Origin: an uncultured beta proteobacterium
GTDB taxonomy: Bacteria > Pseudomonadota > Gammaproteobacteria > Burkholderiales > Burkholderiaceae_C
Reading direction: 5' to 3'
Assembly: GCA_903938815.1 (NCBI GenBank)
Contig: CAJAES010000027.1
Span: forward strand, 1,324 to 65,323
Length of the DNA: 64,000 nucleotides
Below the pieces are notes generated by a model. It did no database searches. It had not been told where the DNA came from and saw only the letters and a list, made by a program, of their open reading frames with translations. The position numbers and the translations under genes are program-made. Below are positions 8,848 through 55,700 of the stretch, piece after piece (position 1 is the first letter of the stretch; every line of letters starts with the position of its first letter).

Positions 8848-9194
8848 CTCAGTTTCCTGTGTCTTGTCGAACATGATTCGGCTTGGGGCGTTGGTCGAAG
8901 TCGTCCGACCGCCAGCCACACCGATGAACGTGCCGCCCCGGGCACGGGTCACGAATTCGCGCCAGGCGGGACGGACCAATCCGGTCGAAACCGCGCCCGG
9001 CGTCCAGGCCAACTGGTGACCGCCGCACCTGAGCTGCCACGCCGTGCGGCGGGGTTCAGGACGGCGGCCGCCCGCTGGATGCGGTCGGTGAGGTACGCGG
9101 CGCTCTCCGCAACGCCGGAGCCGATGCGGATTCCAGTGGTGACGTCAGCGCATCACACGCACGACCGGAGCCGGCTGCGATGGCGCGTCAGGGT

Positions 9195-9587: not shown

Positions 9588-9919
9588 CCCCTGATTCTAC
9601 GGGGCACCCGTGGTTTACACCACGCTTCAAGGGCTCGGGCCCCTCAAGCGGGCCTGCCGATGCACTGAAGTTCCGGCGCGTTCGAGCGCGCCAATCCGTT
9701 CGAGAACGAACCGACCGCCCCTCGGCTCCCCGCTACGGTGCCTGGGTCACGACGGTTCGTTCCGAACCTGCCGTGCGCAGGAGCGCTTGTGTTTCGAGCG
9801 ACGCAGCCAGTTATCAGTCATGGGCCTCACCGATGCCGGCAACAAGTCGAACCCGTCGCTCATCCGCTCGCGGTGACGCGCTCAAGCGCGCGATGCCACC
9901 ACGCCGGCCGCGGCGCGGC

Positions 9920-10660: not shown

Positions 10661-10712
10661 ACCCGGCAGGGCAGGGGGCAAGGCGCCGCGCGCCACCTCC
10701 TGCTGCGACCGC

Positions 10713-11747: not shown

Positions 11748-12074
11748 GGACGAGTCTCTTCCGGGTTGAACAAGCAGCTTCGGGGCCCTGACCTGCGGGT
11801 CGAACCGGGAATGTGCCGTGCTGCGGCCGCGACTGCTTCGCCTGCAGGGCTGCTTTACACGCTTGCGGTCGGGCCGGGTCAAGGGCTGTCGCCAGCCTAG
11901 GCCAGGCGCGTCCGGGCATCGGTGCGGTAGACGACACCCAGGATTCGGCTGCGTGCGCCTTCGAACAGACCCACCCGAACCCGACGCGCAGGCTGCACCT
12001 CACTGCTACCCCAGGCCCGCCCGCCGCGTGACTCCGCGCTGCGGGCGGGCTGCCCGTTCCAAGGAGTCCACCCG

Positions 12075-13151: not shown

Positions 13152-13181
13152 TCCACGAATCCCCGAAGGACTTCTCCCCCC

Positions 13182-19304: not shown

Positions 19305-20029
19305 ATGTCGGGCCTCGGGTGCTGGTGGTCGAAGACGAGGTCAAGCTGGCGGCGCTGCTGTGCGAGTACCTGCGCGCCGCGGGCTACGAACCCCGCGTGG
19401 CGGAGGACGGCCCCTCGGCGCTTCAGTCCGTTGCAGCCGAGCCCCCCGCGGCCGTGCTGCTCGACCTGAACCTGCCCGGCCTGGACGGCATGGAGGTGTG
19501 CCGCCGGATCCGCCGTGACTCGGCCGTGCCCATCCTGATGCTGACGGCCCGGGCCGACGAAATCGACCGCATCCTGGGCCTGGAGATCGGCGCCGACGAC
19601 TACCTCTGCAAGCCGTACAGCCCGCGCGAGGTGGTGGCCCGCGTGCGTGCCTTGCTGCGGCGTTCCCAGGGCCGGATGACGGGAGTTGCCGCCGCGCCGG
19701 GCCCGGAGCTGGGCGGTTTTGCCGTGGACGATGCTGGCCAGCGTGCCTGGTGGCGCGGTCGGGTGCTGCCGCTCACGCCGATCGAATGGCGCCTGCTGCG
19801 CACGCTGATGCAGCAGCCTGGGCGCGTGTATTCCCGTGCGCAATTGCTGGACGCCATCCACGCCGACTTTCGCGATGTGAGCGACCGCGCGGTGGACAGC
19901 CACGTGAAGAACCTGCGCCGCAAGCTGCAGGCAGCGGTGCCGGGGGGCGATTGCATTGCAAGCGTGTATGGCGTGGGTTACCGCCTGGACCTCCCGGCCG
20001 ACGAAGGCAGCGCCACAAGCGGCCTGTAG
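19301..20029 (+). CDS. OmpR-family response regulator (BaeR-like)
   Basis: ATGA overlap with the kinase gene. Receiver (VLVVEDE...LLDLNLPGLDG...ADDYLCKPYS) plus a winged-helix C-terminus (YGVGYRL). Confidence 0.9.
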   Translation: MNVGPRVLVVEDEVKLAALLCEYLRAAGYEPRVAEDGPSALQSVAAEPPAAVLLDLNLPGLDGMEVCRRIRRDSAVPILMLTARADEIDRILGLEIGADDYLCKPYSPREVVARVRALLRRSQGRMTGVAAAPGPELGGFAVDDAGQRAWWRGRVLPLTPIEWRLLRTLMQQPGRVYSRAQLLDAIHADFRDVSDRAVDSHVKNLRRKLQAAVPGGDCIASVYGVGYRLDLPADEGSATSGL

Positions 20030-43008: not shown

Positions 43009-44016
43009 TTGAAGCTCTTTCGTCCCATCCGGCGGCGGGCCTTCGGCACCGCCTTGCTCAACCGCAGCCTGACGCTGCTGGCGCGGCAGGCGCGTGCCTT
43101 CAAGCGTGCGCTGAAGCCTGCAGTGTCCCGGCCGCATCGGTCCCCGGCTGTGGCCGGCAAGGGCTGGACCCAGGGCGTAGCCTCGGGCGCGGCCGGTTCG
43201 CGTCGCTACTGGCTGTACTGCCCTCCGGGCGTGGCCGCGCAAGAGCGCCTGCCGCTGATGGTGATGCTGCACGGTTGCCGCCAGGATGCCGCCGCGTTCG
43301 CGGCGAGCACGGGCATGAATCGCGTCGCCCTGCGCGAACGCTTCCTGGTGCTCTACCCCGAGCAGGATCTCTCCGCCAATGCACAGGGCTGCTGGAACTG
43401 GTTCGAGACCGACTCGGGCCGCGGCTTCGGCGAGGCTGAACTGATCCTGGGCGCCATCGATCAGGTGTGCGCCAGACAACCCGTCGACCCACAGCGCGTG
43501 GCGATCTCCGGCCTCTCGGCAGGCGCCAGCATGGCTGCATTGCTGGTCACGCGGCACCCGGCCCGATTCCAGGCGCTGGTGATGCACTCGGGCATCCCGC
43601 CCGGAACGGCGCACTCCACGATGTCGGCCCTGGGCGCCATGCAGCACCACCATGCCACGCGTCCGCTGGCCGTGACATCGGCCGTCATGGCGGCAAGCTG
43701 GCCGGCCCTGCTGGTCATTCACGGGCAGGCCGACCGGGTGGTGTCCCCCCGTTACGGGCAGGCCTCGGCCGACCTGTGGGCTGCGGCAGCAGGGGCCAGC
43801 CCGGCCGCGGCTCGCAGGCTGCAGCGGGGCCGGCGCCACGCGATGTCCATCACGGATTTCAAGCATGTCGGGCGCACGGTCGCCACGCTCGTGGCCGTTG
43901 ACAAGCTGGGCCACGCCTGGAGCGGTGGCGCCGACCGGCAGCCCTTCGCCGATGCGGCGGGCCCCGATGCATCGCGCATGGCATGGTCCTTTGCCGCGAA
44001 ACAGTTTCTGCCGTGA
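43009..44016 (+). CDS. PHB depolymerase family esterase
   Basis: TTG start. Motifs LPLMVMLHGCRQDA, CWNWF and nucleophile elbow GLSAGASMA are typical of the esterase/PHB depolymerase family. Confidence 0.8.
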   Translation: MKLFRPIRRRAFGTALLNRSLTLLARQARAFKRALKPAVSRPHRSPAVAGKGWTQGVASGAAGSRRYWLYCPPGVAAQERLPLMVMLHGCRQDAAAFAASTGMNRVALRERFLVLYPEQDLSANAQGCWNWFETDSGRGFGEAELILGAIDQVCARQPVDPQRVAISGLSAGASMAALLVTRHPARFQALVMHSGIPPGTAHSTMSALGAMQHHHATRPLAVTSAVMAASWPALLVIHGQADRVVSPRYGQASADLWAAAAGASPAAARRLQRGRRHAMSITDFKHVGRTVATLVAVDKLGHAWSGGADRQPFADAAGPDASRMAWSFAAKQFLP

Positions 44017-44783
44017 CAGCCGATCCAACCATCCCGACCGCTCCGACCGCTCCGACCGCATGCAGCGCATGCCCGTTGCGCAGCCTGCCGCTGTTCCTGG
44101 ACCACACCGACGAGGAACTGGAACTGGTGCAGTCGCTCAAGCGCGGCGTGCAGAGTCTGGGCCCGCTGGAGACCCTGATCCATGAGGGACAGACCGATGC
44201 ACCGCTGTACACGCTGCTCGAGGGCTGGGCGTTCCGCTACAAGACCCTGAGCGACGGCCGGCGCCAGATCCTGAGCTTCCTGCTGGCCGGCGACTTCATC
44301 GGTGTGCAGCAGAAGATGGGCGACGCCGCGGCACATGGCGTCGACACGCTGACGCCGGCGGTGTTCTGCATGTTCCAGCGCAACGCGCTGTGGGAACTGC
44401 ATCGCCGCTCTCCGACCATGGGCTTCAACGTGACCTGGCTCACCGCGCACGAGGAGTCGATGGTGGACGACACGCTGCTCTCGGTCGGCCGCCGCAGCGC
44501 CGAGGAACGCATCGCGATGATGCTGATCCTGCTGTTCAAGCGCGCTGCGGCGCTGCAGGCCGATGCAGGCGCGGGCGGCGTTCCGTTCCCGCTCACGCAG
44601 CAGCACATCGCCGACGGCCTGGGGCTGTCGCTCGTCCACACCAACAAGACCTTGCGCAAGCTGGAGCGGCGCGGCCTGCACCAGATATCGCAGGGCCGCC
44701 TGCATATGCGCGACGTGAAGGCGCTCGCGCGCCTGGCGGACCTGTGGGGCGACGGTCGGCCGCCGCAGCGCCCCCTGGTGTAG
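44013..44783 (+). CDS. Crp/Fnr family transcriptional regulator
   Basis: Track ORF 43983..44783. GTG 44013 overlaps the upstream TGA. It has a cNMP-binding-like barrel and the HTH QQHIADGLGLSLVHTNKTLRKLERRGL. The N-terminus carries CSAC. Confidence 0.8.
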   Translation: MTADPTIPTAPTAPTACSACPLRSLPLFLDHTDEELELVQSLKRGVQSLGPLETLIHEGQTDAPLYTLLEGWAFRYKTLSDGRRQILSFLLAGDFIGVQQKMGDAAAHGVDTLTPAVFCMFQRNALWELHRRSPTMGFNVTWLTAHEESMVDDTLLSVGRRSAEERIAMMLILLFKRAAALQADAGAGGVPFPLTQQHIADGLGLSLVHTNKTLRKLERRGLHQISQGRLHMRDVKALARLADLWGDGRPPQRPLV

Positions 44784-44844
44784 CGCTGCAACGGGATGTC
44801 TTTGTACACAGGGGCCGGCATCCCGCGCTCCTACATTGCGGCCG

Positions 44845-45552
44845 ATGCCCGCAATCCATGCACTTGAAATCCGCCTCGAAGGCAACCGCCTTCTGTCCGC
44901 ATTGCCGGATGCCGACTGGTCACGCCTGCTGCCCGACCTGGAGTGGGTGCAACTGACGCACGGCGAGACCCTCTACGAGGCTGGCGCCCCACTGCGCCAG
45001 GTGCACTTCCCGGTGACCGCGAATGTCTCGCTGGTGTCGTCGATGCGCGACGGCTCCTCCGCCGAGGTGGCGGTGGTGGGTCGCGAGGGCGTGGTCGGGT
45101 TGAGCGCCTGCCTGGGCGCCGGCATCGCGCACACCAGCGCCGTGGGGCAAGGGGCCGGCCATGCCTGGCGCATGGGGGTTGGCGCCATGAACCGGCACGT
45201 CGGGCAATCAATGCCTCTGCTCCAGGGCGTGCTCGGCTACACGCAGGCACTGCTCGCGCACATGGCGCAGACCTCCGCCTGCAATCGCCATCACGGACTC
45301 GACCAGCAACTCTGCCGATGGCTGCTGCTGCACCTCGACAGGCAATCGCACAACGAGATGCACGCGACGCAGGAGCGCATTGCGCGGTTGCTCGGCGTGC
45401 GCCGCGAAGGGGTCACGGGCGGTGCGGCGCGGCTGCGAGATGCAGGCCTGATCCGCTATGCCCGGGGCCGGATCTCGATCCTCGACCGGCAGGGCCTCGA
45501 AGCGCGCAGCTGCGAGTGCTATGCCGTCGTGCGCGACGCCCACATGGCCTGA
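44845..45552 (+). CDS. Crp-like transcriptional regulator (paralogue of 51316..52026)
   Basis: ATG 44845 (track TTG 44836). NRLLSALPDADW...VSLVSSMRDGSSAEVAVVGREGVVG...CNRHHGLDQQLCRWLL...LGVRREGVT... Confidence 0.8.
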   Translation: MPAIHALEIRLEGNRLLSALPDADWSRLLPDLEWVQLTHGETLYEAGAPLRQVHFPVTANVSLVSSMRDGSSAEVAVVGREGVVGLSACLGAGIAHTSAVGQGAGHAWRMGVGAMNRHVGQSMPLLQGVLGYTQALLAHMAQTSACNRHHGLDQQLCRWLLLHLDRQSHNEMHATQERIARLLGVRREGVTGGAARLRDAGLIRYARGRISILDRQGLEARSCECYAVVRDAHMA

Positions 45553-45732: not shown

Positions 45733-46167
45733 ATGAACTACGAAGAACGCGATCCTCACGGCATGTACAAGTCCGCCGATGCAGGCCCCGATGTGCGCCG
45801 CGGCCCCGGCCCGCACCTCATGGGCGCCGACACGCTTCTCGGCAACGACGTCTACAACAGGCAGTCGGAAGACCTCGGCGACATCAGTGAGATCATGCTC
45901 GACATGCGCAGCGGGCGCGTCAGCTATGCGGTGCTGTCCTTCGGTGGGTTCCTGGGCATGGGCGACAAGCTCTTCGCCGTGCCGTGGGCTGCGCTGAAGC
46001 TCGACACCGAGAACAAGCGCTTCGTCCTCGATGTCACGAAGGAGCGTCTCGAAACGGCGCCCGGCTTCGACAAGAACCATTGGCCCGACATGGCCGATGC
46101 CGTCTGGCAGAAGGACATCCACGCCTACTACGGCACGAAACCTGAACTCGATACGCCCCGCCTTTGA
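45733..46167 (+). CDS. PRC-barrel domain protein
   Basis: ATG 45733 in track ORF 45556..46167. LLGNDVYNRQSEDLGDISEIMLDMRSGRVSYAVLSFGGFLGMGDKLFAVPW is a typical PRC-barrel core. Confidence 0.8.
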   Translation: MNYEERDPHGMYKSADAGPDVRRGPGPHLMGADTLLGNDVYNRQSEDLGDISEIMLDMRSGRVSYAVLSFGGFLGMGDKLFAVPWAALKLDTENKRFVLDVTKERLETAPGFDKNHWPDMADAVWQKDIHAYYGTKPELDTPRL

Positions 46168-46187
46168 GCCTGGGCAGAAAGAACGGC

Positions 46188-47000
46188 ATGCTGATTCGCG
46201 TCGGTTTTGAAATGGTCTACCAGTGTCCGGCTCCCACGCCGATGATCCTGGCGCTCAACATCCACTACTCGCGCGCTTCAGACCTCGTGCGTCCGGACCA
46301 TCTGGTCACGATCCCGGCGGTGCCCGTCACGGCCTACCGGGATCTCTTCGGCAACTGGTGCAGCCGGATCGTGGCGCCCCAGGGTCGCTTCGTGATCAGC
46401 ACTGACGCCGTCGTGCAGGATTCCGGGCTCACCGACGTCATTGCCACCTACGCCGAAGAGGTTCCGGTGGAGCAGTTGCCCGAGTCGACGCTGGTCTATC
46501 TGCTCGGCAGCCGCTACTGCGAGACCGACCTGCTGTCGGACGTGGCCTGGCAACAGTTCGGCAACGGCCCCAGGGGCTGGGCGCGCGTGCAGGCCATCTG
46601 CGATTTCGTGCACCAGCGCATCCGCTTCAATTACGCGCACGCGCGGCGCACCCGTACCGCGTGGGAGGCCTTCAACGAAGGGCAGGGCGTGTGCCGCGAC
46701 TATGCGCATCTCGCCATCGCGCTGTGCCGCTGCATGAACATTCCCGCCCGCTACTGCACCGGCTATCTCGGTGACATGGGCACCGAGCCGCCCTACGGCC
46801 CGATGGATTTCGCCGCGTGGTTCGAAGTCTGGCTGGGCGACCGCTGGTATGCCTTCGATGCGCGCAACAACACGCCGCGCATCGGCCGCGTCCTGCTCGC
46901 GCGCGGCCGCGACGCCTGCGACGTCGCGCTGGCCAGCACCTTCGGCCCCAACACGCTGGAATCGTTCAAGGTCTGGACGGACGAAGTGATGTCCGCATGA
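46188..47000 (+). CDS. Transglutaminase-like family protein (Bact_transglu_N plus Cys-protease-fold core)
   Basis: MLIRVGFEMVYQC N-domain. Catalytic region GQGVCRDYAHLAIALCR...FAAWFEVWLGDRWYAFDARNN (Cys/His/Asp). Confidence 0.85.
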   Translation: MLIRVGFEMVYQCPAPTPMILALNIHYSRASDLVRPDHLVTIPAVPVTAYRDLFGNWCSRIVAPQGRFVISTDAVVQDSGLTDVIATYAEEVPVEQLPESTLVYLLGSRYCETDLLSDVAWQQFGNGPRGWARVQAICDFVHQRIRFNYAHARRTRTAWEAFNEGQGVCRDYAHLAIALCRCMNIPARYCTGYLGDMGTEPPYGPMDFAAWFEVWLGDRWYAFDARNNTPRIGRVLLARGRDACDVALASTFGPNTLESFKVWTDEVMSA

Positions 47001-47719
47001 CCTATTGCGTGGGTGTCAAGCTGGACGAAGGCCTCATCTTCGCCAGTGATTCGCGCACGCACGCGGGCGTCGACAACTACGCCAAGTTCCGCAAGATGAC
47101 GGTCTTCGAACGCAGCGGCGACCGCGTCATCGTGCTGCTGAGTTCAGGCGGCCTGGCCGCAACGCAGGCGGTCATCAACGTGCTGAGCCGGCGTGCGGAA
47201 GCCGAGGGCCCGAACCTGTGGAGCGTGGGTTCGATGTTCGACGTCGCCATCCTGGTGTCGGACGCCCTGCGCGACATAGAACGCCGCGACGGCCCGTTCA
47301 TGGAATCGGGCGGGCTGAAGTTCAACGCCTCTTTCATTCTCGGCGGGCAGATCGCCGGCGAAGGCATGCGCCTGTTCCGGCTCTACGCAGAGGGCAACTT
47401 CATCGAGGCCGGCATCGACACGCCATTCCTGCAGACGGGCGAGGCCAAGTACGGCAAGCCCATCCTCGACCTCGCCGTGAGCGCCACCGCCACGCTGGAA
47501 GACGCCACCAAGTGCGTGCTGGTGTCCTTCGACTCCACGATGATCAGCAACCTATCCGTGGGCATGCCGATCGACCTGCTCTGCTACGCGCGCGACACCA
47601 TGCAAGTGACGATGCAGCGCCGCTTCGACCAGGGCGACGACTACTTCGAGGCGCTCACCCGGCAATGGCTCGAAGGCACGCGGCGTGTGTTCCATGACCT
47701 GCCTGCGCTGACTTGGTGA
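46997..47719 (+). CDS. Proteasome-type peptidase Anbu (ancestral beta subunit family)
   Basis: ATGA overlap with the transglutaminase gene. N-terminus MTYCVGVKLDEGLIFASDSRTHAG, with Thr2 as the Ntn nucleophile. About 240 aa, typical of Anbu. Confidence 0.8.
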   Translation: MTYCVGVKLDEGLIFASDSRTHAGVDNYAKFRKMTVFERSGDRVIVLLSSGGLAATQAVINVLSRRAEAEGPNLWSVGSMFDVAILVSDALRDIERRDGPFMESGGLKFNASFILGGQIAGEGMRLFRLYAEGNFIEAGIDTPFLQTGEAKYGKPILDLAVSATATLEDATKCVLVSFDSTMISNLSVGMPIDLLCYARDTMQVTMQRRFDQGDDYFEALTRQWLEGTRRVFHDLPALTW

Positions 47720-47738
47720 GATGTTCGCCGGACAGCGT

Positions 47739-47752
47739 TTGTTCCAGATCAA
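47739..47752. promoter_or_regulatory. FNR/CRP-type dyad, 9/10 match to TTGAT-N4-ATCAA
   Basis: TTGTT-ccag-ATCAA lies in the AT-rich spacer about 145 nt upstream of ATG 47897. TATAGT (47831-47836) and TACTAT (47860-47865) are possible -10 boxes downstream. Confidence 0.3.
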
Positions 47753-47896
47753 TACAAGCACATATTCCTTTGAAGATGTCTTGTGCTGCGACTGTTCGGT
47801 GACGCACATACGCCCCCTGCTGCGCCGCAATATAGTGCTCTCAAATGCGTACCGAGGCGTACTATCGAAACCTCCGATCCCCCTGGTCAGCGCGAT

Positions 47897-48331
47897 ATGC
47901 CTGTTGCTTGGCAAGACATCAGCCGCTGGCCCTTGCTGCTGAACCTCCGCTTGCCGAACGGGGCGAGCGTCGAGCAGATTGCCGACGCCGTCACCGACAT
48001 CTGGATTGAGATCGACCGGGTCTTGCATCCGATCGTCGGGCACCGCGGTGTGGCCGCCCTGTACCACCGCAGCCTGAAGGTATCGGCTGCAGGTCACCCC
48101 TGGCTGAGCCCGGCGAACCCCGGCCTGCTCGCCGAAATCAATCGTGATGCGCTGCGTGCTGCGCTTGTCGGTCAGACCCCGGACGACGCAAGAGCGGGTG
48201 CGCTCGATCAACTCGAAGCCTTTTGCACTCTGCTGGCCAGCCTGGTCGGCGCTTCACTCACGGCCCGGCTGCTTGCGCCGGTGTGGGCACCATCCGAGGG
48301 CGAGCCGCCCGCGCAGGAAGTTTTTTCATGA
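47897..48331 (+). CDS. Hypothetical 144-aa protein, first gene of the KaiC-like module
   Basis: ATG 47897 in track ORF 47783..48331. GC3 rises sharply only after this ATG. Its stop overlaps the next start (ATGA). No family recognised, and no TM or signal peptide. Confidence 0.55.
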   Translation: MPVAWQDISRWPLLLNLRLPNGASVEQIADAVTDIWIEIDRVLHPIVGHRGVAALYHRSLKVSAAGHPWLSPANPGLLAEINRDALRAALVGQTPDDARAGALDQLEAFCTLLASLVGASLTARLLAPVWAPSEGEPPAQEVFS

Positions 48332-49797
48332 CGAGCAAAGCCACCATCAACCTCCTGGCCACCAAGGTGCCAGGCTTGGATGAGGTGCTCGGCGGCGGCC
48401 TGCCCGAGTTTTCGTTCAACCTCATCGCCGGCCAGCCAGGCTGCGGCAAGACCACGCTGTCGCACCAGATCATGTTCGCGCTGGCCACGCCGGAGCGCCC
48501 TGCGATCTACTTCACGGTGCTGGGCGAGCCGCCGCTGAAGATGCTGCGCTATCAGCAGCAGTTCGATTTCTTTGATACCGAAGCCCTGCAAAGGCGCGTG
48601 CGCTTCGTCAGCTTGTCCGAGGACGCCATGACCGGCGACCTGGAGCGCGTGCTCCAGCGCATCGCGGCAGAAGTGGCCGAACACAGCCCCGGCCTGGTGT
48701 TCGTGGACTCCTTCCGTTCAGTGGTCTTTGCCAGCGAAGGCGGCAGCGCGCACGCGCGGCTGCAACTCTTCGTCCAGCAGCTCGGCATGCTCATGACCAG
48801 CTGGCAGGCCACCACCTTTCTCATCGGCGAGTACTTCGACGAGACCGACACCAACCCGGTGTTCACCGTCGCCGATGGTCTGATCTGGCTGCGCCAGAGC
48901 GTTCAGCGCAACTCCATGGTGCGCAAGCTCGAAATCATGAAGATGCGCGGTCAGGCCACATTGCCGGGCCTGCACACCTTCCGCATCGACCGGTCGGGCG
49001 TGCGTGTCTTCGCGCCGGCGACTGCAGTGGCCGTGGCTGCGCACCACGCGACGAACACGGCGGCACCGTCGGTCGACCGTGCGAATCTCGGCGTGCCTGA
49101 ACTCGACGCGATGCTGGGTGGCGGGCTGCCGCGCGGCTACTCGCTGCTGCTGGCCGGGCCTTCGGGCTCTGGCAAGAGCATCCTGGCGGCCAGCTTCCTG
49201 GCAGAAGGAAACCGACGCGGCGAGATCGGTGTGCTGGCTGCGTTCGAGCAGCACCCCGACGTCGCGCGCAACCCCTTGCTCGCCGCTCTGATCGAGAACG
49301 GTGCGGTCAGCGTGATCGACAGCCACGAGGCGGATCTCTCCATCGACGAGATCGTGCTGCTGATCCTGACCGAGGTGGCGCGGCGAAACGCCACCCGCGT
49401 GGTGATCGACTCGCTCAGCGGATTCGAGCTGGCGCTGGCGCCCACCTTCCGCGCAGACTTCCGCGAATCCCTGCTCGGCCTGGTGACCGCCTTGTCGCGC
49501 TCCGGCGTCACGGTGGTGATGACTTCGGAGCTCGAGGACCGCTACACCGATCTTCGCTTCAGCCCCTACGGCGCCGCCTTTCTCACCGACGCGATCATCG
49601 TGCAGCGCTACATCGAGGTCGACAGCCGGCTCCTGCGCGTGATGGCGGTCGTGAAGGTCAGGGCCAGTGCGCATTCCGACGAACTGCGCCTGTACAGCAT
49701 CGACGACAAGGGAGTGCGAATGGGCGAGCGCCTGCAGGGCCAGGAAGGACTCCTCGGCGGCAGCCCGAAGCGCGTGCGGCCCCGAGACCCGATGTGA
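48328..49797 (+). CDS. KaiC-family double RecA-fold ATPase (489 aa)
   Basis: Two domains, each with Walker A (GQPGCGKTT, GPSGSGKS) and Walker B (LVFVDSF, RVVIDSL). The C-terminal segment LTDAIIVQRYIEVDSRLLRVMAVVKVRASAHSDELRLYSIDDKG aligns without gaps with S. elongatus KaiC ITDTIILLQYVEIRGEMSRAINVFKMRGSWHDKAIREFMISDKG. Confidence 0.85.
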   Translation: MTSKATINLLATKVPGLDEVLGGGLPEFSFNLIAGQPGCGKTTLSHQIMFALATPERPAIYFTVLGEPPLKMLRYQQQFDFFDTEALQRRVRFVSLSEDAMTGDLERVLQRIAAEVAEHSPGLVFVDSFRSVVFASEGGSAHARLQLFVQQLGMLMTSWQATTFLIGEYFDETDTNPVFTVADGLIWLRQSVQRNSMVRKLEIMKMRGQATLPGLHTFRIDRSGVRVFAPATAVAVAAHHATNTAAPSVDRANLGVPELDAMLGGGLPRGYSLLLAGPSGSGKSILAASFLAEGNRRGEIGVLAAFEQHPDVARNPLLAALIENGAVSVIDSHEADLSIDEIVLLILTEVARRNATRVVIDSLSGFELALAPTFRADFRESLLGLVTALSRSGVTVVMTSELEDRYTDLRFSPYGAAFLTDAIIVQRYIEVDSRLLRVMAVVKVRASAHSDELRLYSIDDKGVRMGERLQGQEGLLGGSPKRVRPRDPM

Positions 49798-51323
49798 TGT
49801 CCGAGAAGCCCGGATCCGAAGGCAGCAAGGCCCTCGACCCCAGCGCCGAAGCTGCTGCGCTGGGCATCCAGATCGAGGCCATGCGGGCCTCTCTGGTGCG
49901 CCTGCTGCAAGAGGTGGTGACAGCCGAGGCCAGGGTGGTCACGAGCAATTCCGCCGCCCAGATGGCGGAAGTCAACGGCGTGCTGGTCGAGCGGGCTCTG
50001 GCACTTCAGGAAAGCGCTCAGGCCGGTGGCCTGGACGTGCTGACCCGGTTGCCGAATCGCCTGACCCTGCGCGACCGCTTCGGCCAGGCCGTGGCCCAGT
50101 CGCGGCGAAACGGTGATCGTCTGGCGCTGCTGTTCATCGATCTCGATGACTTCAAGCCGCTGAACGATCTTCACGGCCACCCGTTCGGCGACCGCGTGCT
50201 GCAGTTGGTGGCGCAGCGTCTGCTGACCGCTGTACGCGAGGTCGATACCGTCAGCCGCCACGGCGGCGACGAGTTCCTGATCCTGCTGGTGGGCCTGAAC
50301 CAGCCACAGGATGCACAGGCGGTGGCCGACAAGCTGGCCGCCGCAGTTGCCGAGCCGGCCAGCATCGACGGCCACGCGCTTTCGCTCTCGGTGAGCGTGG
50401 GCATTGCCGTTCATCCGGACGACGGCGAGGAACTCGATGCCCTGGTCGCACGGGCTGACGCTGCCATGTACGCGGCCAAGTACCGGCGCGGGCGCCACGG
50501 CGCTGGCGTTCCCGACTCCCTGCGCACGCAGGCTCAGTTGCGCGAGGCCAACGAGCGCCTGATCGTCGCTGCACTCAGCGCCCAGGAACTGCTGGAGGCT
50601 GCCGAGAAGGCGCGCAAGCGGCAGGAGGTGCTCATGGCTGCCGTGGCCGAGGAACTGCGCAACCCGACCGCGCCCGTCAGCATCGCCAGCACGATGGTCG
50701 GCCACCTGCCAGGCGACGAACCGCTTCTGCCGCGCGTGCAGGCGGTGGTGGAAAAGCGCCTGACGCATCTCTCGCGCTTGATCGGCAATCTGGTGGAAAC
50801 CTCGTCGGCATCTGTCGCGCCGCTGGAGCTCGCACACGAGTGGGTGGACATGGCGCCCATCATCGACGGCGCCGCTGCCGCCTACCGCCCGGTGCTCGAC
50901 CAGCGCGGCCAGCGGTTCGAGCTGCGCCGGCCCGCCGGGCCGCTGGGCGTCAGCGGCGACGCAGACCGGCTCGGGCAGATCGTCACGAACCTCCTCGACA
51001 ACGCCAGCCAGCACACGCACGACGGCGGCCGCATCAGCCTGGTGGTTGCCGTGGAAGGCGAGAGCCTCCAGATGACCGTGGCCGACGACGGCTACGGCAT
51101 CGGCCCGCAGACCTTGCCCTACATCTTCGAGCCTTTCGTGCAGGACATCCATGCCCTGGGGGCCGGCGGCCCCGTTCCCGGCATCGGGCTCACGGTGGTG
51201 CGGGCACTGGTGCGCGCCCATGGCGGCAACCTGAGCGCGCACAGCCCCGGCCTGCGCCGCGGCAGCCAGTTTCTCGTGACACTCCCGCTCGTCGGCAAAC
51301 CCGACGCTCGTCAAGATGACTGA
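49797..51323 (+). CDS. Cytoplasmic GGDEF diguanylate cyclase fused to a histidine-kinase-like DHp/HATPase_c core with a degenerate H-box
   Basis: The ATG at 49797 overlaps the KaiC-like TGA. Coiled-coil N-terminus. GGDEF domain (RHGGDEF, I-site REVD). H-box position reads VAEELRNPTAPV. N-box NLLDNASQHT, G1 DDGYGI, G2 GIGLTV. Confidence 0.85.
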   Translation: MSEKPGSEGSKALDPSAEAAALGIQIEAMRASLVRLLQEVVTAEARVVTSNSAAQMAEVNGVLVERALALQESAQAGGLDVLTRLPNRLTLRDRFGQAVAQSRRNGDRLALLFIDLDDFKPLNDLHGHPFGDRVLQLVAQRLLTAVREVDTVSRHGGDEFLILLVGLNQPQDAQAVADKLAAAVAEPASIDGHALSLSVSVGIAVHPDDGEELDALVARADAAMYAAKYRRGRHGAGVPDSLRTQAQLREANERLIVAALSAQELLEAAEKARKRQEVLMAAVAEELRNPTAPVSIASTMVGHLPGDEPLLPRVQAVVEKRLTHLSRLIGNLVETSSASVAPLELAHEWVDMAPIIDGAAAAYRPVLDQRGQRFELRRPAGPLGVSGDADRLGQIVTNLLDNASQHTHDGGRISLVVAVEGESLQMTVADDGYGIGPQTLPYIFEPFVQDIHALGAGGPVPGIGLTVVRALVRAHGGNLSAHSPGLRRGSQFLVTLPLVGKPDARQDD

Positions 51324-52026
51324 CGCGCTGCGCAATGGCCTGCTTGCGGCGTTGCCGGATTCCGACTGGGTACGCTGGGAGCCTCTGCTGGAGCCGATGG
51401 CGCTGCCGCTCGGGCACGTGCTGTACGAGTCCGGCGTGCAACTGGCCTATGCCTGCTTTCCCACCACGGCGATCGTCTCCCTGATGTACGTCACCGAGAA
51501 CGGCGACTCTTCAGGCATCGCTCTGGTGGGCCGCGAAGGCATGGTGGGCGTGCCGCTCATCATGGGCGGCGGCTCCACCCCGGGCCGCGCCGTCGTGCAG
51601 AGCGCGGGGCAGGGCTACAGAATCTCGGCATCTGCGTTGCGCCAGGAATTCGCACGGGGCGGGCCGGTGATGCAGCTGCTGCTGCGCTACACGCAGGCGC
51701 TGATCGCGCAGATGGCGCAGATCGCGGTGTGCAACCGCCACCATTCCGTGGACCAGCAGCTGTGCCGCTGGTTGCTGCTCAACCTGGACCGGTTGCCTGG
51801 CGACGACATCGTGGCCACCCAGGAACTCATCGCGCACATGCTGGGCGTGCGCCGCGAGGGCGTGACCGAAGCAGCGCTGTCGCTGCAGCGCTCCGGCCTC
51901 ATCAGCTATCGGCGCGGCCATGTCCAGGTGCTGGACAGGCAGGGGCTGGAACGTCGCAGCTGCGAGTGCCATGCCGTCATCAAGGACGAATACGACCGGC
52001 TGTTGCCGCAGCCCGTGCCGGTGTGA
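51316..52026 (+). CDS. Crp-like transcriptional regulator (paralogue of 44845..45552)
   Basis: 8-nt overlap with the upstream gene. NGLLAALPDSDW...VSLMYVTENGDSSGIALVGREGMVG...CNRHHSVDQQLCRWLL...LGVRREGVT... Confidence 0.85.
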   Translation: MTDALRNGLLAALPDSDWVRWEPLLEPMALPLGHVLYESGVQLAYACFPTTAIVSLMYVTENGDSSGIALVGREGMVGVPLIMGGGSTPGRAVVQSAGQGYRISASALRQEFARGGPVMQLLLRYTQALIAQMAQIAVCNRHHSVDQQLCRWLLLNLDRLPGDDIVATQELIAHMLGVRREGVTEAALSLQRSGLISYRRGHVQVLDRQGLERRSCECHAVIKDEYDRLLPQPVPV

Positions 52027-52037
52027 GCCGGCACGGG
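52012..52037. terminator. 10-bp perfect hairpin at a convergent gene junction (possible bidirectional terminator, no U-tract)
   Basis: CCCGTGCCGG-tgtgag-CCGGCACGGG spans the stop codon of the Crp-like gene, 9 nt from the csbD-like stop. Confidence 0.4.
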
Positions 52038-52045
52038 CGGGTCGA

Positions 52046-52279
52046 TCACTTCTGCTTGTCGGACTTCTCGAGCCAGGTGTCGCTGGCGCTGCGTTCCCAC
52101 GAGGCCAGCTGCTTCTCGGCCTCTTCCTTGGCGACGCCGTAGCGCTCCTGGATCTTGCCGGCCAGCTGGTCGCGGCGGCCCGCGACCACGTCGAGGTCAT
52201 CGTCCGTCAGCTTGCCCCATTGCTCACGGGCCTTGCCTTGCACCTGTTTCCAGTTGCCTTGGATCTGTTCCCAGTTCAT
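52046..52279 (-). CDS. CsbD family stress protein
   Basis: MNWEQIQGNWKQVQGKAREQWGKLTDDDLDVVAGRRDQLAGKIQERYG is the canonical CsbD motif. Confidence 0.9.
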   Translation of the reverse strand: MNWEQIQGNWKQVQGKAREQWGKLTDDDLDVVAGRRDQLAGKIQERYGVAKEEAEKQLASWERSASDTWLEKSDKQK

Positions 52280-52298
52280 GTGATCTCCTTGCGGTCGC

Positions 52299-52613
52299 TC
52301 AGGGCCGGATTGCGATTTCGTTCTTGACCTGCTTCACGCCCTTGACCTTCCAGGTCAGGGTTTCGGCGGTGGCCTTCTCGGTCGAGCCCTTGGCAAAGCC
52401 GGAGAGCATCACGGTGCCGTTGAGCGTCTCGACGCTGATCGCGGCAGCATCGACCATCTTGTTCTCGACGAAGCTGCCCTTGACGGCCGTGGTGATGGCT
52501 GCGTCATCGACGTACGCGCCCACGGTTTCCTGGCCGCGCATGACGGCGCAGCCCGCGGTGGTGGCGAGGACGAGCGCGGCGAAGACCGGCAGCATTGCTT
52601 TTCTGATGTTCAT
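52299..52613 (-). CDS. BON domain lipoprotein (OsmY-like)
   Basis: ATG 52613 with AGGAG SD. Lipobox TTAGC. BON core DDAAITTAVKGSF...ISVETLNGTVMLSGFA. Confidence 0.85.
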   Translation of the reverse strand: MNIRKAMLPVFAALVLATTAGCAVMRGQETVGAYVDDAAITTAVKGSFVENKMVDAAAISVETLNGTVMLSGFAKGSTEKATAETLTWKVKGVKQVKNEIAIRP

Positions 52614-52760
52614 GGAGTGGCTCCTTGGTGTTGACAGCCTCACTCTAGGCAGCGGGCCGTGCGCTGTCCGTGCGCCGGCGCACCCATCGGGGTGCACACT
52701 GCTCACACGGGTGTCGGCCCGTGTTCAGGCGGTGCGTACCGTCGGAGCCAGCCACGCACC

Positions 52761-55700
52761 TCAGCGGCGCTCGGCAGGCACGCGCACCGTGAAGTGGCTG
52801 TCCGGGCCCAGCACGGTCCAGTCCAGCGCCTCGCCGACGGCCAGCGGGCGGCTGTCGGGTGCGTCCATCGCGTCGCCCGTGCCATCGCCCTGCACGAAGC
52901 AGAAGTGCATTCGGCGGCCATCGCGCCTGAGGGTCAGTTCGGCGCGCGGCCAGTGCGTCGGAAGGCAGGGCTCGAAGTGCAGGCTGCGCACCGACAGCTT
53001 CAGGCCGAAGACCGACTCCACCGCCGCACGGTGCAGCCAGCCCGCCGCGCCCGTGTACCAGCTCCAGCCGCCACGGCCGACATGGGGCGCCTGTGTGCAG
53101 ATGTCGCCTGCCATCACGTAGGGCTCCAGCCCGTAGACCCTGCCATGCACCGGGTGCGCCGTGCGATGGGCCGGGCTCAGGAAGCCGAACCAGCGGTAGA
53201 CGGCGTCCCGATCGCCCGGTTTCGCGTGCGGCCCGGCGGCCAGGCGTGCCCGCGCCATCAGCGCCCAGACGGCGGCGTGGGCGTACTGGCCGCCGTTCTC
53301 GCGCACGCCGGCGGGGTAGGCCTGGATGTAACCCGCGGCAGGTTCGGCTCGGTTCAGCGGTGGGTCCAGGAGGCGCAGCAGGCCCCCCGTGGGGTCCACC
53401 AGCAGCGCTTCCGCGGCCTGCATGGCCGCGCGCTGGCGCGCCGGCGGCGCCACATCCGACAGAACCGACCAGGCCTGGGCGATGAGGTCGATGCGAGCCT
53501 CCGTCGATGCCCGTGAGCCGAGTGCCGTGCCGTCGTCGAAGAAGGCGCGCCGGTACCACTGGCCGTCCCAGCCCTCGGACTCCAGCGCGGCACGCCAGCC
53601 GACGGCCGAGGCCTCCCAGCGGTCGGCCCTGTCCGCGTCGCCGCGCGCGCGGGCCAGGGGTGCGAACGCGGCCACCACGCTGCACAGGAACCACCCCAGC
53701 CACACGGATTCGCCGCGGCCTTCATGGCCCACCCGGTTCATGCCGTCGTTCCAGTCGCCGCTGCCCATCAGCGGCAGGCCGTGCTGGCCGACGCGCAGGC
53801 TGTGATCGATGGCCCGCGCCGCGTGTTCGTAGACAGAGGCGACATCGGTGCCGGGCACAGGCGTCTCGTAGATGTCCTCTGCGCCGGCCGGCACCTCGGC
53901 GCCTTCCAGGAAGGGCACGCGTTCGTCGAGCAGAGAGGCGTCGCCCGTGGCCTCCTGGTGCTGTGCCACGGCGAGTGGAAGCCACAGCAGGTCGTCGCTC
54001 ACGTGGGTGCGCACCCCGGCCCCCTGAGGTGCATGCCACCAGTGCTGCACGTCGCCGGCCGCGAACTGTCGTGACGCGCACAGGACGATCTGCGCGCGCA
54101 GCATGGCCGGCGCCGCCCAGGCCAGCGACATCGTGTCCTGCAACTGGTCCCGGAAGCCCGTGGCGCCCCCGGCCTGGTAGAAGCCGGCCTTGGCCCACAG
54201 GCGGCAGGCCACGGCCTGGTAGAGCAGCCAGCGGTTGACGAGCACGTCGAACAGCGGGTCGGGTGTCTTCACGGTCGTGGCGCCCAGCAGGGCGTCCCAG
54301 CGCGCGCGTGCCGTGGCGGTGCGTTCGGCGGGTGGCAACGCCAGCGCCCGGGCGGCCAGCGCCAGGGCGTCGGCAGCGGTGTCGGCGTGCCCGAGCAGGA
54401 AGACACGGCGGGCGCTCGCCCCGGGCGCCAGCGACACGCGTGTCGCGATGGCGGCGCAGGGGTCCAGACCGCCGCCGAAGCGCCGCCCCAGGTGGTCGGG
54501 CAGCACCAGCCTGCCGCGGGTGTCGAAGAACTCCCTGCGGTCGGTGGTCCAGTCGTCGGCGGCCTCCGACAGCGCCAGGAATGCCGTGGCGCCGCCGAAG
54601 CCCGCGCCTCGCTCGTCCTGGGTTGCCATGAGTACCCGGGCGCGGCCTACCGCAGCCTGCGCCGTGCGAACGGTGGCACGGTCGCCGCGCCGCGTGCCCA
54701 TCATCCATTCGGCCATGCCGGCCAGCCGCAGCGACCGCGTCCGCGTGCCGTGGTTGACCATCTCCACGCTGACATGCTTGACGGCCGCATCGGCATCGAC
54801 GCACCAGGCCACGCGCACCGCCAGATCGCCATGGCGATGTTCGATGCTGCTCTCGCCCTGGCCGTGGCGCACCGTGTAGGTCGCGTCCGCATCGCCCCAG
54901 GCCGAGGGCGCGAGGCTCCAGGCATCACGTGTGCGCTCATCCTGCAGCAGAAACCATTCCGCCGGCGTGTCGGCAACAGGGTCGTTGGACCAGGCCGTGA
55001 TCTGGTGCATGCGGCTGTTGTGGGCCCAGCTCATGCCCGAGCCCGACTCAGACAGCAGCGCGCCGAAGCCCGGCTGCGCCAGCACATTGACCCAGGGGCG
55101 AGCCGGGCGCGTGCGCGCATCGACGGCGAACACGAAGTCGCCCGTCTCCGCATCGAACCGGCCGGCCGGGAGCGCCTGCCTGGCGTCGGGCGCGGGGCGT
55201 GTGCCGACCGGCGTGCCGGGGACATCCTGTCGCCTGTCGAACGCCGCATCGTGCGCCGACGCAAGATCCTGCACGTGCCGGGACAGAGGGCGCCCGTCGG
55301 CCATCAGGTGGACCCGGGCAAGCGCCTGCAGCGTGGCCGAATCCTCGAGGGTCAACTCGTCGGCACGCAGGCGGTACAGGCCGCCACCCGGGTCCGCCAT
55401 GCCAGCGAGAGCCTGCTGCAGCGGTGACTGGTAGGACGGAGGCTCCGCGTTCACGATGATCAGATCGCAGGCGACTCCGCCCCATGACCAGATCTGCAAT
55501 GCCTGCGAAAGCGTGCGCAGCAGGCCGGTGTCCTGGGTGACGCGCACCGTGACGAGCAGGATGGGCCTGTCCCCCGAGATTCCGAAGCGCCAAAGCAGGC
55601 GCCTGTCGCAGGCGCCTCGGGCTGAAAACGCCGGCGGCGCTGTTGAAACTGCAGCCGGGACTGCAACCTGAACGGCAACCGGAACGGCGTCCGCATCCTC

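Follow-up and report, generated by a model that had tools for sequence, protein, structure and literature searches.

Background

In Proteobacteria, KaiC homologues are almost always encoded next to a histidine kinase, which they physically bind (bioRxiv 10.1101/2022.01.26.477890; PMC3164672), and kaiC genes followed by histidine kinase or GGDEF/EAL genes have been noted there (PMC3164672). The binding was shown for pairs of P. putida and P. protegens, and in the P. putida pair the N-terminal PAS domain of the kinase is sufficient for it (bioRxiv 10.1101/2022.01.26.477890). The kinases which are encoded beside or with a kaiC homologue, such as SasA and CikA in cyanobacteria, PP_3835 in P. putida and Rta_04340 in Ramlibacter, keep the phospho-acceptor His, possess a KaiB-like, PAS or pseudo-receiver domain as input, and are associated with a KaiC bearing Ser/Thr phosphorylation sites.

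Other proteins have the fold of a histidine kinase without its acceptor His. DivL of Caulobacter crescentus (4q20) is a HisKA-type DHp-CA protein with Tyr at the acceptor column and PAS domains at the N-terminus; it senses DivK~P and controls CckA, and its kinase core is a sensor which signals back to the N-terminal domains (PMC4211667). In PsmA of Streptomyces, the His of the H-box is replaced by Glu (S. venezuelae) or by Asp, Gln, Val or Tyr (orthologues); this hybrid kinase, equipped with a REC domain and a binder of DivIVA, no longer possesses the ATP-binding residues or the E/DxxT/N motif either (PMC12963549). Among diguanylate cyclases, the phytochrome-linked IsPadC (5llx) carries a GGDEF dimer, with competent GGDEF motif and I-site, on a dimeric helical stalk, and in such cyclases, controlled by helix register, the GGDEF domain is C-terminal to the sensor. 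Clp of Xanthomonas is a Crp/Fnr regulator responding to c-di-GMP. Bcam1349 of Burkholderia, of the same Crp/Fnr family, binds c-di-GMP (PMC3584217).

The gene reported here is a conserved, undescribed variant of these known signalling parts, and neither an error nor an oddity.

A cassette built on a KaiC-like ATPase

The gene occupies positions 49797-51323 of the forward strand of the window (the whole 64-kb stretch of DNA that was analysed); it is a real open reading frame of 508 aa and the third gene of a cassette of four, all on the same strand. The first gene (47897-48331) encodes a protein of 144 aa with no Pfam match, no fold match in the PDB (best E 0.86) and only 78 homologues, all named "hypothetical"; its AF2 model is all helical (pLDDT 78.8). 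The stop codon of this orphan overlaps the start codon of the second gene (ATGA), which encodes a KaiC-like double-domain ATPase of 489 aa (48328-49797; Pfam KaiC E 1e-63 over two stretches) scoring under the NCBIfam cut-off for KaiC equivalogs. The ATG of the third gene overlaps the TGA of the second by 1 nt, while its last 8 nt overlap the start of the fourth gene (51316-52026), a Crp/Fnr-family regulator of 236 aa (HTH_Crp_2 E 2e-13, and a weak Pfam cNMP_binding match). The four genes are translationally coupled.

When metagenome loci were sampled with the 144-aa protein as seed, the KaiC-like gene followed the orphan gene in 74 of the 74 loci with enough sequence, and a gene of the GGDEF/histidine kinase family followed the KaiC-like gene in 24 of 24. 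Variants of the third gene reduced to the GGDEF domain or to the histidine kinase also adjoin orthologous KaiC-like genes, and the only N-terminal element which they have is the ANExLV helix described below. The invariant core is made of the 144-aa orphan protein and of the KaiC-like ATPase. The third gene was encoded with a KaiC homologue at every locus examined, and its product may depend on the KaiC-like protein.

This partner differs from the KaiC proteins of the systems mentioned above. Aligned to solved KaiC, it reads Ala-Phe at the equivalents of S431/T432, so that the canonical Ser/Thr phosphosites are absent; its orthologues beside His-less and His-bearing partners are 66-80% identical and all read "AF" there, with "LGE" in CI and "FEQ" in CII. 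KaiB is absent from the 64-kb window. Whereas the KaiC of the known KaiC-associated kinases retains Ser/Thr sites, the present cassette has neither such a KaiC nor a KaiB gene, and its third gene combines a GGDEF output with a kinase core deprived of His and of any KaiB-like or PAS domain.

Orthologues of the Crp-like gene (63-75% identical) are found directly downstream at other loci: in 10 of 12 lineages lacking the acceptor His and in 1 of 6 lineages bearing it, kinship among lineages being ignored in these counts. Like Bcam1349 and Clp, the regulator is a Crp/Fnr protein; its own context is betaproteobacterial, and it is co-encoded with a cyclase. In its subfamily the C-terminus bears a SCEC[YH] motif, and it has no detectable sequence similarity to a solved c-di-GMP-binding Crp protein, its sole match in the PDB being a weak one in the HTH region.

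At none of the loci examined does the cassette include a response regulator (REC-domain gene). The window contains a single one (19292-20026), 30 kb away and beside a kinase of its own. The cognate response regulator expected of a sensor kinase is thus missing at the loci examined, though an unlinked one may exist.

An apparently complete cyclase joined to a kinase core without acceptor His

According to Pfam and to the alignments, the domains of the 508-aa protein follow in the order GGDEF, HisKA-type DHp, HATPase_c. The N-terminal segment (residues 1-78, 49797-50030), predicted by AF2 to form helices 15-49 and 53-75, contains a first motif (E)(V/A)NExLV(L)AAL (residues 57-71, 49965-50009), conserved in 120 homologues. 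The GGDEF diguanylate cyclase domain (residues 79-230, 50031-50486; Pfam E 1.2e-43, 149 bits for a cut-off of 23.8) has its active-site motif GGDEF at residues 156-160 (50262-50276) and, five residues upstream, the RxxD motif of the inhibitory I-site (R147 to D150, 50235-50246). A long helix in the AF2 model (residues 240-287, 50514-50657) then runs from the GGDEF domain into alpha1 of the DHp; it bears a second copy of the motif, ANExLVLAAL (residues 248-265, 50538-50591), in which R249, N252, E253 and L255 are invariant. The DHp domain (residues 278-336, 50628-50804) is followed by the CA domain (HATPase_c, residues 387-498, 50955-51290; Pfam E 8e-22) with its N-box (50988-51017, including N398), G1 box (51084-51101, starting at residue 430), F-box (at residue 444) and G2 box (51180-51197, starting at residue 462). 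The preliminary description had placed the GGDEF, RxxD, N-box, G1 and G2 motifs at these same positions. Pfam gives only GGDEF, HisKA and HATPase_c for the protein, with neither a KaiB-like domain as in SasA nor a pseudo-receiver as in CikA, and the PAS domain which suffices for KaiC binding by the P. putida kinase is not there either. That description had seen no input domain; it had overlooked the conserved N-terminal helix and, upstream, the KaiC-like ATPase and the 144-aa protein, which with their overlapping stop and start codons are the likely input.

The match of the DHp to Pfam HisKA is weak (E 0.011, under the gathering score). PF00512 is present in most homologues, and phmmer aligns the protein with HisKA kinases of solved structure over both the DHp and the CA domain, at E 1e-22 to 1e-15 (E 1e-13 for DivL). 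Judged by its sequence, the C-terminal half has a DHp homologous to HisKA and a CA domain in which the N, G1, F and G2 boxes are present, as a histidine kinase should, and the N-terminal half what is required of a diguanylate cyclase: a GGDEF domain above threshold, an intact GG[DE]EF motif and RxxD.

The exception is codon 285 (GAG, 50649-50651), which encodes Glu. We assign Glu285 to the phospho-acceptor column because phmmer places "vaEELRNP" on the His of solved kinases: "vsHDLRNP" (8u4x), "vsHELRTP" (SrrB) and "lsHDLRTP" (KdpD). Aligned to the family HMM, the His-bearing relatives read "AHELRNPLAPI" at the same column, and five independent alignments agree on the correspondence. The preliminary description had made this assignment and had proposed to consult the orthologues: a residue other than His is found in 120 of 120 close homologues and in all 136 members of the clade described below. 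It had also envisaged a genuine His in VGHLPG (H303) or in LTHLSR (H324). The column of H303 reads R66/G25/H13 and that of H324 reads Q58/H25/R17 in the 120 homologues; neither being conserved, we rejected both as acceptor, and no alternative conserved His was found in the DHp of these homologues.

It could be argued that Glu285 is a sequencing error, that the gene is a decaying pseudogene or that H303 or H324 serves after all as acceptor, and the HisKA score under the gathering threshold would agree with such a reading. However, the identical protein (P0121) is found on 16 contigs from independent sources and every member of its 90% cluster has E285, on which grounds a sequencing error is rejected; two base changes would be required to pass from His to Glu. 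His is absent throughout the clade while every domain is under strong purifying selection, which argues against decay. The evidence from homologues, alignments, contigs and the 90% cluster refutes this reading, to which we give practically no credit.

The loss of His is an old trait of a large clade

In a neighbour-joining tree of 200 full-length proteins (cluster representatives), His is found in none of the 136 members of one clade and in 57 of the 64 members of the other. Fitch parsimony puts His at the root and requires at least 5 changes. The missing His is a trait of a clade and was lost long ago, in the ancestor of a large, mainly Burkholderiales group, rather than being an error or a one-off. 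The order GGDEF-DHp-CA, previously held to be unusual, is no singleton, since the family counts at least 200 cluster representatives and includes a His-bearing clade. The members of this sister clade (P0215, P0221; loci L150, L165) have the same domain order and the two ANExLV helices, are at most 47% (40-47%) identical to the present protein and lie directly downstream of orthologous KaiC-like genes; unlike it, they keep AHELRNPLAPI, and rarely have the Crp-like gene directly downstream.

The two output domains did not fare alike in the two clades. The GGDEF motif is intact in 136/136 proteins of the His-less clade (RxxD in 135/136) against 46/64 in the His clade, the motif being degenerate in 18 of the 57 His-bearing members. 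No member of the family lacks both His and an intact GGDEF motif (intact to degenerate, 143/0 without His against 39/18 with His; Fisher p = 1.7e-11, kinship ignored). In the CA domain, N398, D430, G432, G434, F447 and G462 are found in 120/120 homologues and G464 in 118/120, and the ATP boxes are also retained across the wider GGDEF-DHp-CA family. Both the ATP-binding boxes, said earlier to be intact, and the cyclase with its I-site, said to look competent, are thus borne out as far as motifs can tell. The remainder of the H-box (E286, L287, N289, P290, P293) is conserved, and within the His-less clade no segment of the protein is better conserved than the H-box helix (residues 283-302; 0.84, for 0.71 overall). 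Strong purifying selection bears on the GGDEF site, the I-site, the ATP boxes and what remains of the H-box: the module is not decaying. The protein answers to the definition of a histidine pseudokinase, having the fold of a histidine kinase and, conserved in orthologues, a residue other than His at the acceptor column (His in 0/136), but its ATP boxes give no sign of the loss of competence of the CA domain seen in PsmA.

The residue which took the place of His is Asp or Glu in about 82% of the 136 proteins (104 of the 120 close homologues), and otherwise Ala, Gln, Gly, Asn, Ser, Lys or Arg. Along the tree, changes among Asp, Glu and Ala recur, and the basal members have Gln, Gly or Asn. This bears on the suggestion, made in the preliminary description, that Glu285 could mimic a permanently phosphorylated DHp domain: the carboxylate would imitate a phospho-His and lock the DHp in the "phosphorylated" state, the cyclase or a partner being then constitutively on or off. 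The suggestion holds in that an acidic residue is preferred; that such a residue is needed does not agree with the other residues found in about 18% of the clade. The Asp and Gln codons are one base from those of His, and the bias towards Asp/Glu could be explained by mutational proximity at a solvent-exposed helical site. Sterically, too, a carboxylate resembles phospho-histidine poorly. The column is equally variable in PsmA, for which mimicry was not claimed (PMC12963549). Since the acidic residue is preferred and not required, little speaks for an obligate phosphomimic, and we hold the lock to be improbable.

Alternatively, the CA domain might use ATP to form an acyl phosphate on residue 285, or to phosphorylate the KaiC-like or the 144-aa partner on Ser/Thr, in the manner of the HK-fold Ser kinases SpoIIAB and RsbW. 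In favour of this, the ATP-binding boxes are invariant, as is the catalytic-base Glu286, and the KaiC-like partner has lost the sites of its own autophosphorylation. The acyl phosphate cannot be general because about 18% of the clade has no carboxylate at the column, where Ala, Gly, Gln, Arg, Lys, Asn and Ser are found; we know of no precedent for a HisKA DHp with Asp or Glu as acceptor, and no conserved Ser/Thr acceptor was identified. Such a transfer seems to us very improbable.

A third use of the kinase half would be that of a phosphatase only. The His-less DHp-CA would bind and dephosphorylate an unlinked response regulator under the control of the KaiC-like protein, as CikA does for RpaA, and the GGDEF domain would be a second output. 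EnvZ mutants at His243 in some cases retain phosphatase activity, and ADP or ATP serve as phosphatase cofactors. The conservation of the H-box helix and the retention of the nucleotide-binding boxes, as read from the alignments, would suit this function, as would the E/DxxT/N motif (E286 in 99% of the His-less clade, N289 in 88% for only 59% in the His clade), which is described as crucial for the phosphatase activity of HisKA proteins (PMC12963549). Against it, no examined cassette contains a response regulator and the only one in the window is paired elsewhere; the matching kinase being missing, another phosphodonor would be needed, and none was identified; finally, the alpha2 Asp, which 98% of the His clade retains, is less strictly kept where His is gone, which suggests a partial loss of the constraint linked to kinase or phosphotransfer activity. 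We regard this use as unlikely, though worth keeping in mind.

A proposed cyclase under the control of the KaiC-like protein

In the AF2 monomer model, the GGDEF domain is predicted with pLDDT >90 and superposes on solved GGDEF domains with an rmsd of 1.2-1.7 Å, while the DHp region has low confidence (pLDDT 50-65). For the kinase half, Foldseek ranks DivL (4q20) first; IsPadC, like which the present protein has a GGDEF and an I-site that look competent, is among the fold matches. Compared with DivL, the present family has a variable Asp/Glu instead of Tyr, a catalytic GGDEF domain upstream, a KaiC-like neighbour and no linked response regulator; compared with PsmA, its ATP boxes and E-x-x-N motif are almost invariant; compared with the cyclases controlled by helix register, it has helices on both sides of the GGDEF domain and the kinase core at the C-terminus.

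The explanation that we prefer, and hold to be probable though well short of established, is that of a diguanylate cyclase controlled by the KaiC-like protein, whose pseudo-kinase half is a nucleotide-binding module of dimerisation and regulation rather than the kinase of a phosphorelay. The protein would be a soluble, dimeric cyclase; with a His-less DHp-CA half, His-Asp phosphorelay would be impossible and the output would be c-di-GMP. The input would come from the KaiC-like hexamer and the 144-aa protein, acting on the ANExLV helices which precede each output domain; that the KaiC-like ATPase contacts the third protein is suggested by gene order and by analogy with other KaiC/histidine kinase pairs. 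The four-helix bundle of the DHp would form the dimer uniting two GGDEF domains, and the nucleotide-bound CA domain may dock on the conserved H-box helix and so set the helix register, information passing from the kinase core to the GGDEF domain, in the reverse direction, as in DivL. The c-di-GMP would probably be sensed by the Crp/Fnr regulator of the cassette, or else by other effectors, acting on nearby stress and envelope genes.

Several observations count against the preferred reading: the protein lacks a PAS domain such as binds KaiC in the P. putida pair, the Crp-like regulator does not resemble a solved c-di-GMP-binding Crp protein, and the ATP site and the E-x-x-N motif are kept more strictly than a pure scaffold needs, so that a catalytic role is possible. 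In a bolder version, which we think distinctly improbable, a living kinase core gates c-di-GMP synthesis by a phosphoryl chemistry not involving His, on the Asp or Glu of column 285 or on the KaiC-like or 144-aa partner. We would then have a timer or energy sensor derived from a clock protein, with a second messenger as read-out and the Crp-like regulator as its sensor.

Significance

Outside cyanobacteria, the role of KaiC homologues and the way in which they transfer information are largely unknown, and the literature suggests a part for adjacent histidine kinases and a role in stress resistance. The present family offers a natural experiment, in which one and the same core, the KaiC-like ATPase plus the 144-aa protein, goes with partners of four kinds: a bifunctional GGDEF-kinase, a kinase alone, a cyclase alone, and a cyclase whose kinase core has no His. 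Kinase and cyclase outputs degenerate in complementary fashion. If the preferred explanation is true, it would establish a direct link from a KaiC-like ATPase to c-di-GMP, undescribed in the literature searched. It would also give a histidine pseudokinase which, unlike PsmA, retains its ATP site and its phosphatase motif, and which would be useful for studying the function left to a kinase core that no longer transfers phosphate.

A glutamate at the phospho-acceptor position

The longest ORF of its region, 49797-51323 on the forward strand, has a product of 508 aa in which Pfam recognizes a GGDEF domain (residues 79-230, E = 1.2e-43), a HATPase_c domain (residues 387-498, E = 8e-22) and, below threshold, a HisKA domain (residues 278-336, E = 0.011). 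In NCBIfam all matches are partial and below the cut-offs; they are to diguanylate cyclases for the first half and to histidine kinases for the second. We assigned the acceptor position with phmmer, using residues 244-508 as the query against all PDB sequences: the segment vaEELRNP of the window protein stands opposite vsHDLRNP in 8u4x, vsHELRTP in SrrB and lsHDLRTP in KdpD. The alignment to the family HMM agrees, the same column belonging to AHELRNPLAPI in remoter relatives, and codon 285 is GAG (50649-50651). The claim of the preliminary description that Glu285 occupies the column of the phospho-accepting His is thus confirmed, and the assignment is robust; every motif position given there was also correct. 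The two histidines which it had proposed as alternative acceptors, H303 and H324, were rejected, as neither is conserved.

The glutamate might also have been an artefact, that is, a sequencing error or the mark of a pseudogene. A protein identical to that of the window (P0121) is encoded on 16 contigs from several sources and E285 is present in every member of its 90% cluster; we therefore regard this explanation as refuted and leave it hardly any probability at all. We note that the deposited sequence of a CpxA structure, PDB 4biz, reads iSEELRTP, with a Glu where the other CpxA entries align a His. This is presumably an engineered variant, and it could provide a structural reference for Glu at the acceptor position.

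Loss of the histidine and conservation of the kinase half

In the best 120 homologues (50-60% identity, with identical architecture in all), the acceptor column holds D 63 times, E 41, A 10, N 2, S 2 and G 1. The question whether orthologues have His is thus answered: none of the 120 does. Next to this column E286, L287, N289, P290 and P293 are nearly invariant, GGDEF is kept in 120/120, the I-site residues R147 and D150 in 120 and 119 respectively, and the residues of the N, G1, F and G2 boxes in 118-120. The named relatives are Rubrivivax, Ramlibacter, Caenimonas and Chromatiaceae MAGs. When 1.84 billion cluster representatives were searched exhaustively with HMMER, many proteins with a normal His-bearing H-box appeared at about 47% identity or less, their length and domain order being unchanged. 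A simple neighbour-joining tree of 200 full-length members (cluster representatives) separates a His clade (64 members, with the His present in 57 and its losses sporadic) from a His-less clade of 136 members, none of which has it. Gln, Gly or Asn are found at the base of the His-less clade, Asp and Glu dominate its crown, and flips between Asp, Glu and Ala are repeated. Fitch parsimony requires at least 5 His/non-His changes and reconstructs the root as His. The absence of His is a clade trait.

Since the acceptor His is absent, a conventional His-Asp relay is not to be expected. An acidic residue in its place could be thought to lock the protein by mimicking the phosphorylated state, yet about 18% of the members are non-acidic at this position, and PsmA, a known histidine pseudokinase, is equally variable there (PMC12963549); we find such a lock quite improbable. 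Phosphotransfer that does without His seems to us very unlikely.

The kinase module of the His-less clade is not decaying. Its best conserved segment is formed by residues 283-302, which comprise the H-box and the rest of alpha1: mean column conservation there is 0.84, even with the variable acceptor column included, for 0.77 in the CA domain, 0.75 in the GGDEF domain and 0.71 over the whole protein. The Glu at H+1 is 99% conserved in this clade and the Asn at H+4 reaches 88%, against 59% in the His clade, whereas one Asp of alpha2, conserved at 98% in the His clade, is relaxed. Taken together, the data show selection on the cyclase site and the I-site as well as on the ATP site and the H-box.

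Degeneration of the two outputs is complementary: all 136 members of the His-less clade have an intact GGDEF, against 46/64 of the His clade. When the 200 proteins are sorted by the residue itself, it is intact in 143 non-His proteins and degenerate in 0, and intact in 39 His proteins and degenerate in 18 (Fisher p = 1.7e-11, without phylogenetic correction). This is most simply read as subfunctionalisation from an ancestor that was both cyclase and kinase, the cyclase being the indispensable output in the clade of the window protein.

A cassette with a KaiC-like ATPase

On the forward strand the gene stands third in a compact series of four, the others encoding a 144-aa protein (47897-48331, the first), a KaiC-like ATPase (48328-49797, the second) and a Crp/Fnr regulator (51316-52026, the fourth); the overlaps at the successive junctions are ATGA, TGATG and 8 nt. 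The protein had been described as having no input domain, but the KaiC-like ATPase and the 144-aa protein encoded upstream are a putative input. Gene context was taken from the contigs encoding homologues and from a scan of metagenomes in which the small protein served as seed; the loci are mostly metagenomic. All four genes are also found around the homologues P0050, P0048 (Rubrivivax MAG), P0092, P0042 and P0121. The KaiC-like gene is directly upstream of the His-bearing P0221 and P0215 too, a Crp-like gene is downstream of the His-bearing P0219, and beside the Gln variant P0210 lie the small-protein and KaiC-like genes, Crp being absent. The seed of the scan was the small-protein motif GVAALYxRSL, chosen so that sampling would not favour the finding: a KaiC-like ORF comes next after the small protein in 74/74 loci having more than 88 nt of downstream sequence, and a GGDEF/HK-family ORF comes next after the KaiC-like one in 24/24 loci with enough sequence. 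This shows an obligate linkage of the GGDEF/pseudo-kinase gene to a KaiC-like ATPase devoid of phosphosites and to a small helical protein.

The retention of the E-x-x-N motif and of the ATP site would also suit a kinase which has become a phosphatase only, its target being an unlinked regulator. The absence of any linked regulator speaks against this: there is no response regulator near the cassette, the sole one in the window lying 30 kb away beside its own kinase. We consider this explanation rather unlikely.

A 177-nt intergenic stretch (47720-47896), AT-richer in a window of 70% G+C, lies 5' of the cassette. It has no sigma-70-like promoter, and comparison with its counterparts at four other loci gave no common motif. 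The aligned intergenic regions upstream of the cassette at five loci contain no conserved operator or Crp-type palindrome, and the scan of 47500-52400 gave no promoter-like site and terminator-like sites at chance level. A known defence system was rejected as well, the PADLOC matches being only P-loop-level and to the KaiC-like protein.

The KaiC-like proteins beside both clades are orthologous (66-80% identity) and better conserved than their partner. Since the S431/T432 phosphosite positions are Ala-Phe in all of them (window and loci L081-L091), LGE replaces the Glu-Glu pair of CI and CII has FEQ, this subfamily, judging from its sequence, cannot be a phosphorylation oscillator. There is no KaiB gene in the window. 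At one sampled locus, L083, the KaiB-less cassette is preceded, at a distance of about 1.4 kb, by a canonical kaiC-kaiB-kaiB-PAS/HisKA/HATPase/REC cluster (1-2732), and hence two different KaiC systems are adjacent in one genome.

The AF2 model of the 144-aa protein is all helical (pLDDT 78.8, pTM 0.74), and we rejected a KaiB-like role for this reason. The protein has no Pfam match, and the fold search gave no match in the PDB and none to KaiA. It has only 78 homologues, none of them named, with the invariant motifs GVAALYxRSL and LLxSLVGxxLTxRLL; its gene is immediately upstream of the KaiC-like subfamily in 74/74 loci. A role as a modulator of KaiA/KaiB type, with a new fold, is conceivable.

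Forms of the partner protein

The partner may be GGDEF, His-less DHp (E, D, K or R) and CA, or GGDEF, His-bearing DHp and CA, as at loci L150, L159, L160 and L165. Other forms lie beside an orthologous KaiC-like gene: at L153 (2104-3411) a helix with HisKA (His) and HATPase_c, GGDEF being absent, and at L156 (2237-3082) and L163 (4032-4901) a helix with GGDEF only. The L145 partner (7366-8499) breaks off within DHp alpha2, and no HATPase_c is encoded by the ORF that follows; this may be a frameshift or truncation, and we left it out of the designed variants as an unexplained truncation. Common to all forms is an N-terminal helix with the motif (E)(V/A)NExLV(L)AAL, more fully (E)(V/A)NExLV(L)AAL.(A/S)Q. 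The window protein has one copy before the GGDEF domain (residues 57-71, 49965-50009) and one before the DHp (residues 248-265, 50538-50591), and the GGDEF-less L153 protein has both in tandem. This ANExLV helix may be the signal-receiving element, and the window architecture looks like two KaiC-linked effectors fused, with one receiving helix each.

Crp/Fnr regulators and neighbourhood

After collapsing loci at 85% identity, we found a Crp-like gene directly downstream in 10/12 His-less against 1/6 His-bearing lineages (Fisher p = 0.013, uncorrected and ignoring shared ancestry). The Crp-like proteins of the cassettes are orthologous (63-75% identity) and have a C-terminal SCEC[YH] motif in common. 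Against the PDB the regulator gives only a weak match at the level of the HTH, hence there is no homology argument for its binding c-di-GMP. Three Crp/Fnr-family regulators are encoded within 8 kb (43983-44783, 44836-45552 and 51316-52026, +), the last two being 52% identical paralogues, both with the SCEC[YH] motif; two or three such paralogues also flank the cassette in L081, L082, L083 and L085.

Just upstream, at 45733-47719 (+), lie genes for a PRC-barrel protein, for a protein resembling transglutaminases (46164-47000, +) and for a proteasome-subunit-like protein of 240 aa (46997-47719, +; Pfam Proteasome E = 2e-4), in an order also found in L085 and L086; they may belong to a set of Anbu-type peptidase genes. 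Convergent with the cassette, 52046-60938 (-) encodes a CsbD-like protein, a protein with a BON domain and, in 2725 aa, a GH94/glycoamylase-type cyclic glucan synthase-like protein; L085 and L086 keep all three genes, which are candidate targets of the cassette. The surroundings have the look of an island for osmotic or envelope stress. In L091, the Gln-variant cassette is followed (7862-13584) by cellulase, GH8 (BcsZ-like), WecG-type glycosyltransferase and sugar-transferase genes, and there is no Crp-like gene; in this lineage c-di-GMP may therefore control exopolysaccharide.

Proposed mechanism and relation to known systems

The AF2 monomer of the window protein (mean pLDDT 77.8) has two N-terminal helices, a canonical GGDEF fold, within 1.2-1.7 Å rmsd of solved GGDEF domains, a helix of 48 residues (240-287) that leads out of the GGDEF domain and continues as DHp alpha1, and a normal CA domain. 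The pLDDT exceeds 90 in the GGDEF and CA domains and is 50-68 in the helices, as expected because an obligate dimer was modelled alone. The top structural match in the PDB is the pseudokinase DivL (4q20).

Our functional statements are all drawn from sequence, conservation and gene order. The KaiC-like hexamer and the small protein would act as a sensor or timer on the ANExLV helices; the DHp bundle would supply the dimer needed for GGDEF catalysis; docking of the CA domain with its nucleotide on the conserved H-box helix would set the register of the long helix between GGDEF and DHp. In this way the kinase core would serve the cyclase as an input module, signalling in reverse as described for DivL (PMC4211667). 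The c-di-GMP would be read by the co-encoded Crp/Fnr regulator, for which Bcam1349 is a precedent (PMC3584217), or by other effectors. We lean towards this mechanism as a whole, with no great assurance. Published work supports its general logic: proteobacterial KaiC homologues almost always have an adjacent histidine kinase, which they bind, and affect stress resistance (bioRxiv 10.1101/2022.01.26.477890), and the Ramlibacter genome paper notes an 'AF' class of KaiC as well as kaiC genes with HK or GGDEF/EAL genes after them (PMC3164672).

Histidine pseudokinases and KaiC-kinase gene pairs are already known. DivL has Tyr at the acceptor position; PsmA, with Glu, Asp, Gln, Val or Tyr (PMC12963549), is a direct precedent for Glu, but unlike PsmA the clade of the window protein keeps the ATP site and the phosphatase motif. 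In the literature searched we found no description of a GGDEF-DHp-CA family tied to KaiC-like ATPases, of a His-less clade keeping ATP site and phosphatase motif, of the complementary loss of cyclase and kinase outputs, or of the 144-aa partner; the nearest published remark concerns a diguanylate cyclase beside kaiCBB in Thiodictyon (PMC5944118). The surprise is chiefly for specialists of two-component systems, c-di-GMP and Kai proteins; the signalling route of bacterial KaiC homologues becomes a directly testable question.
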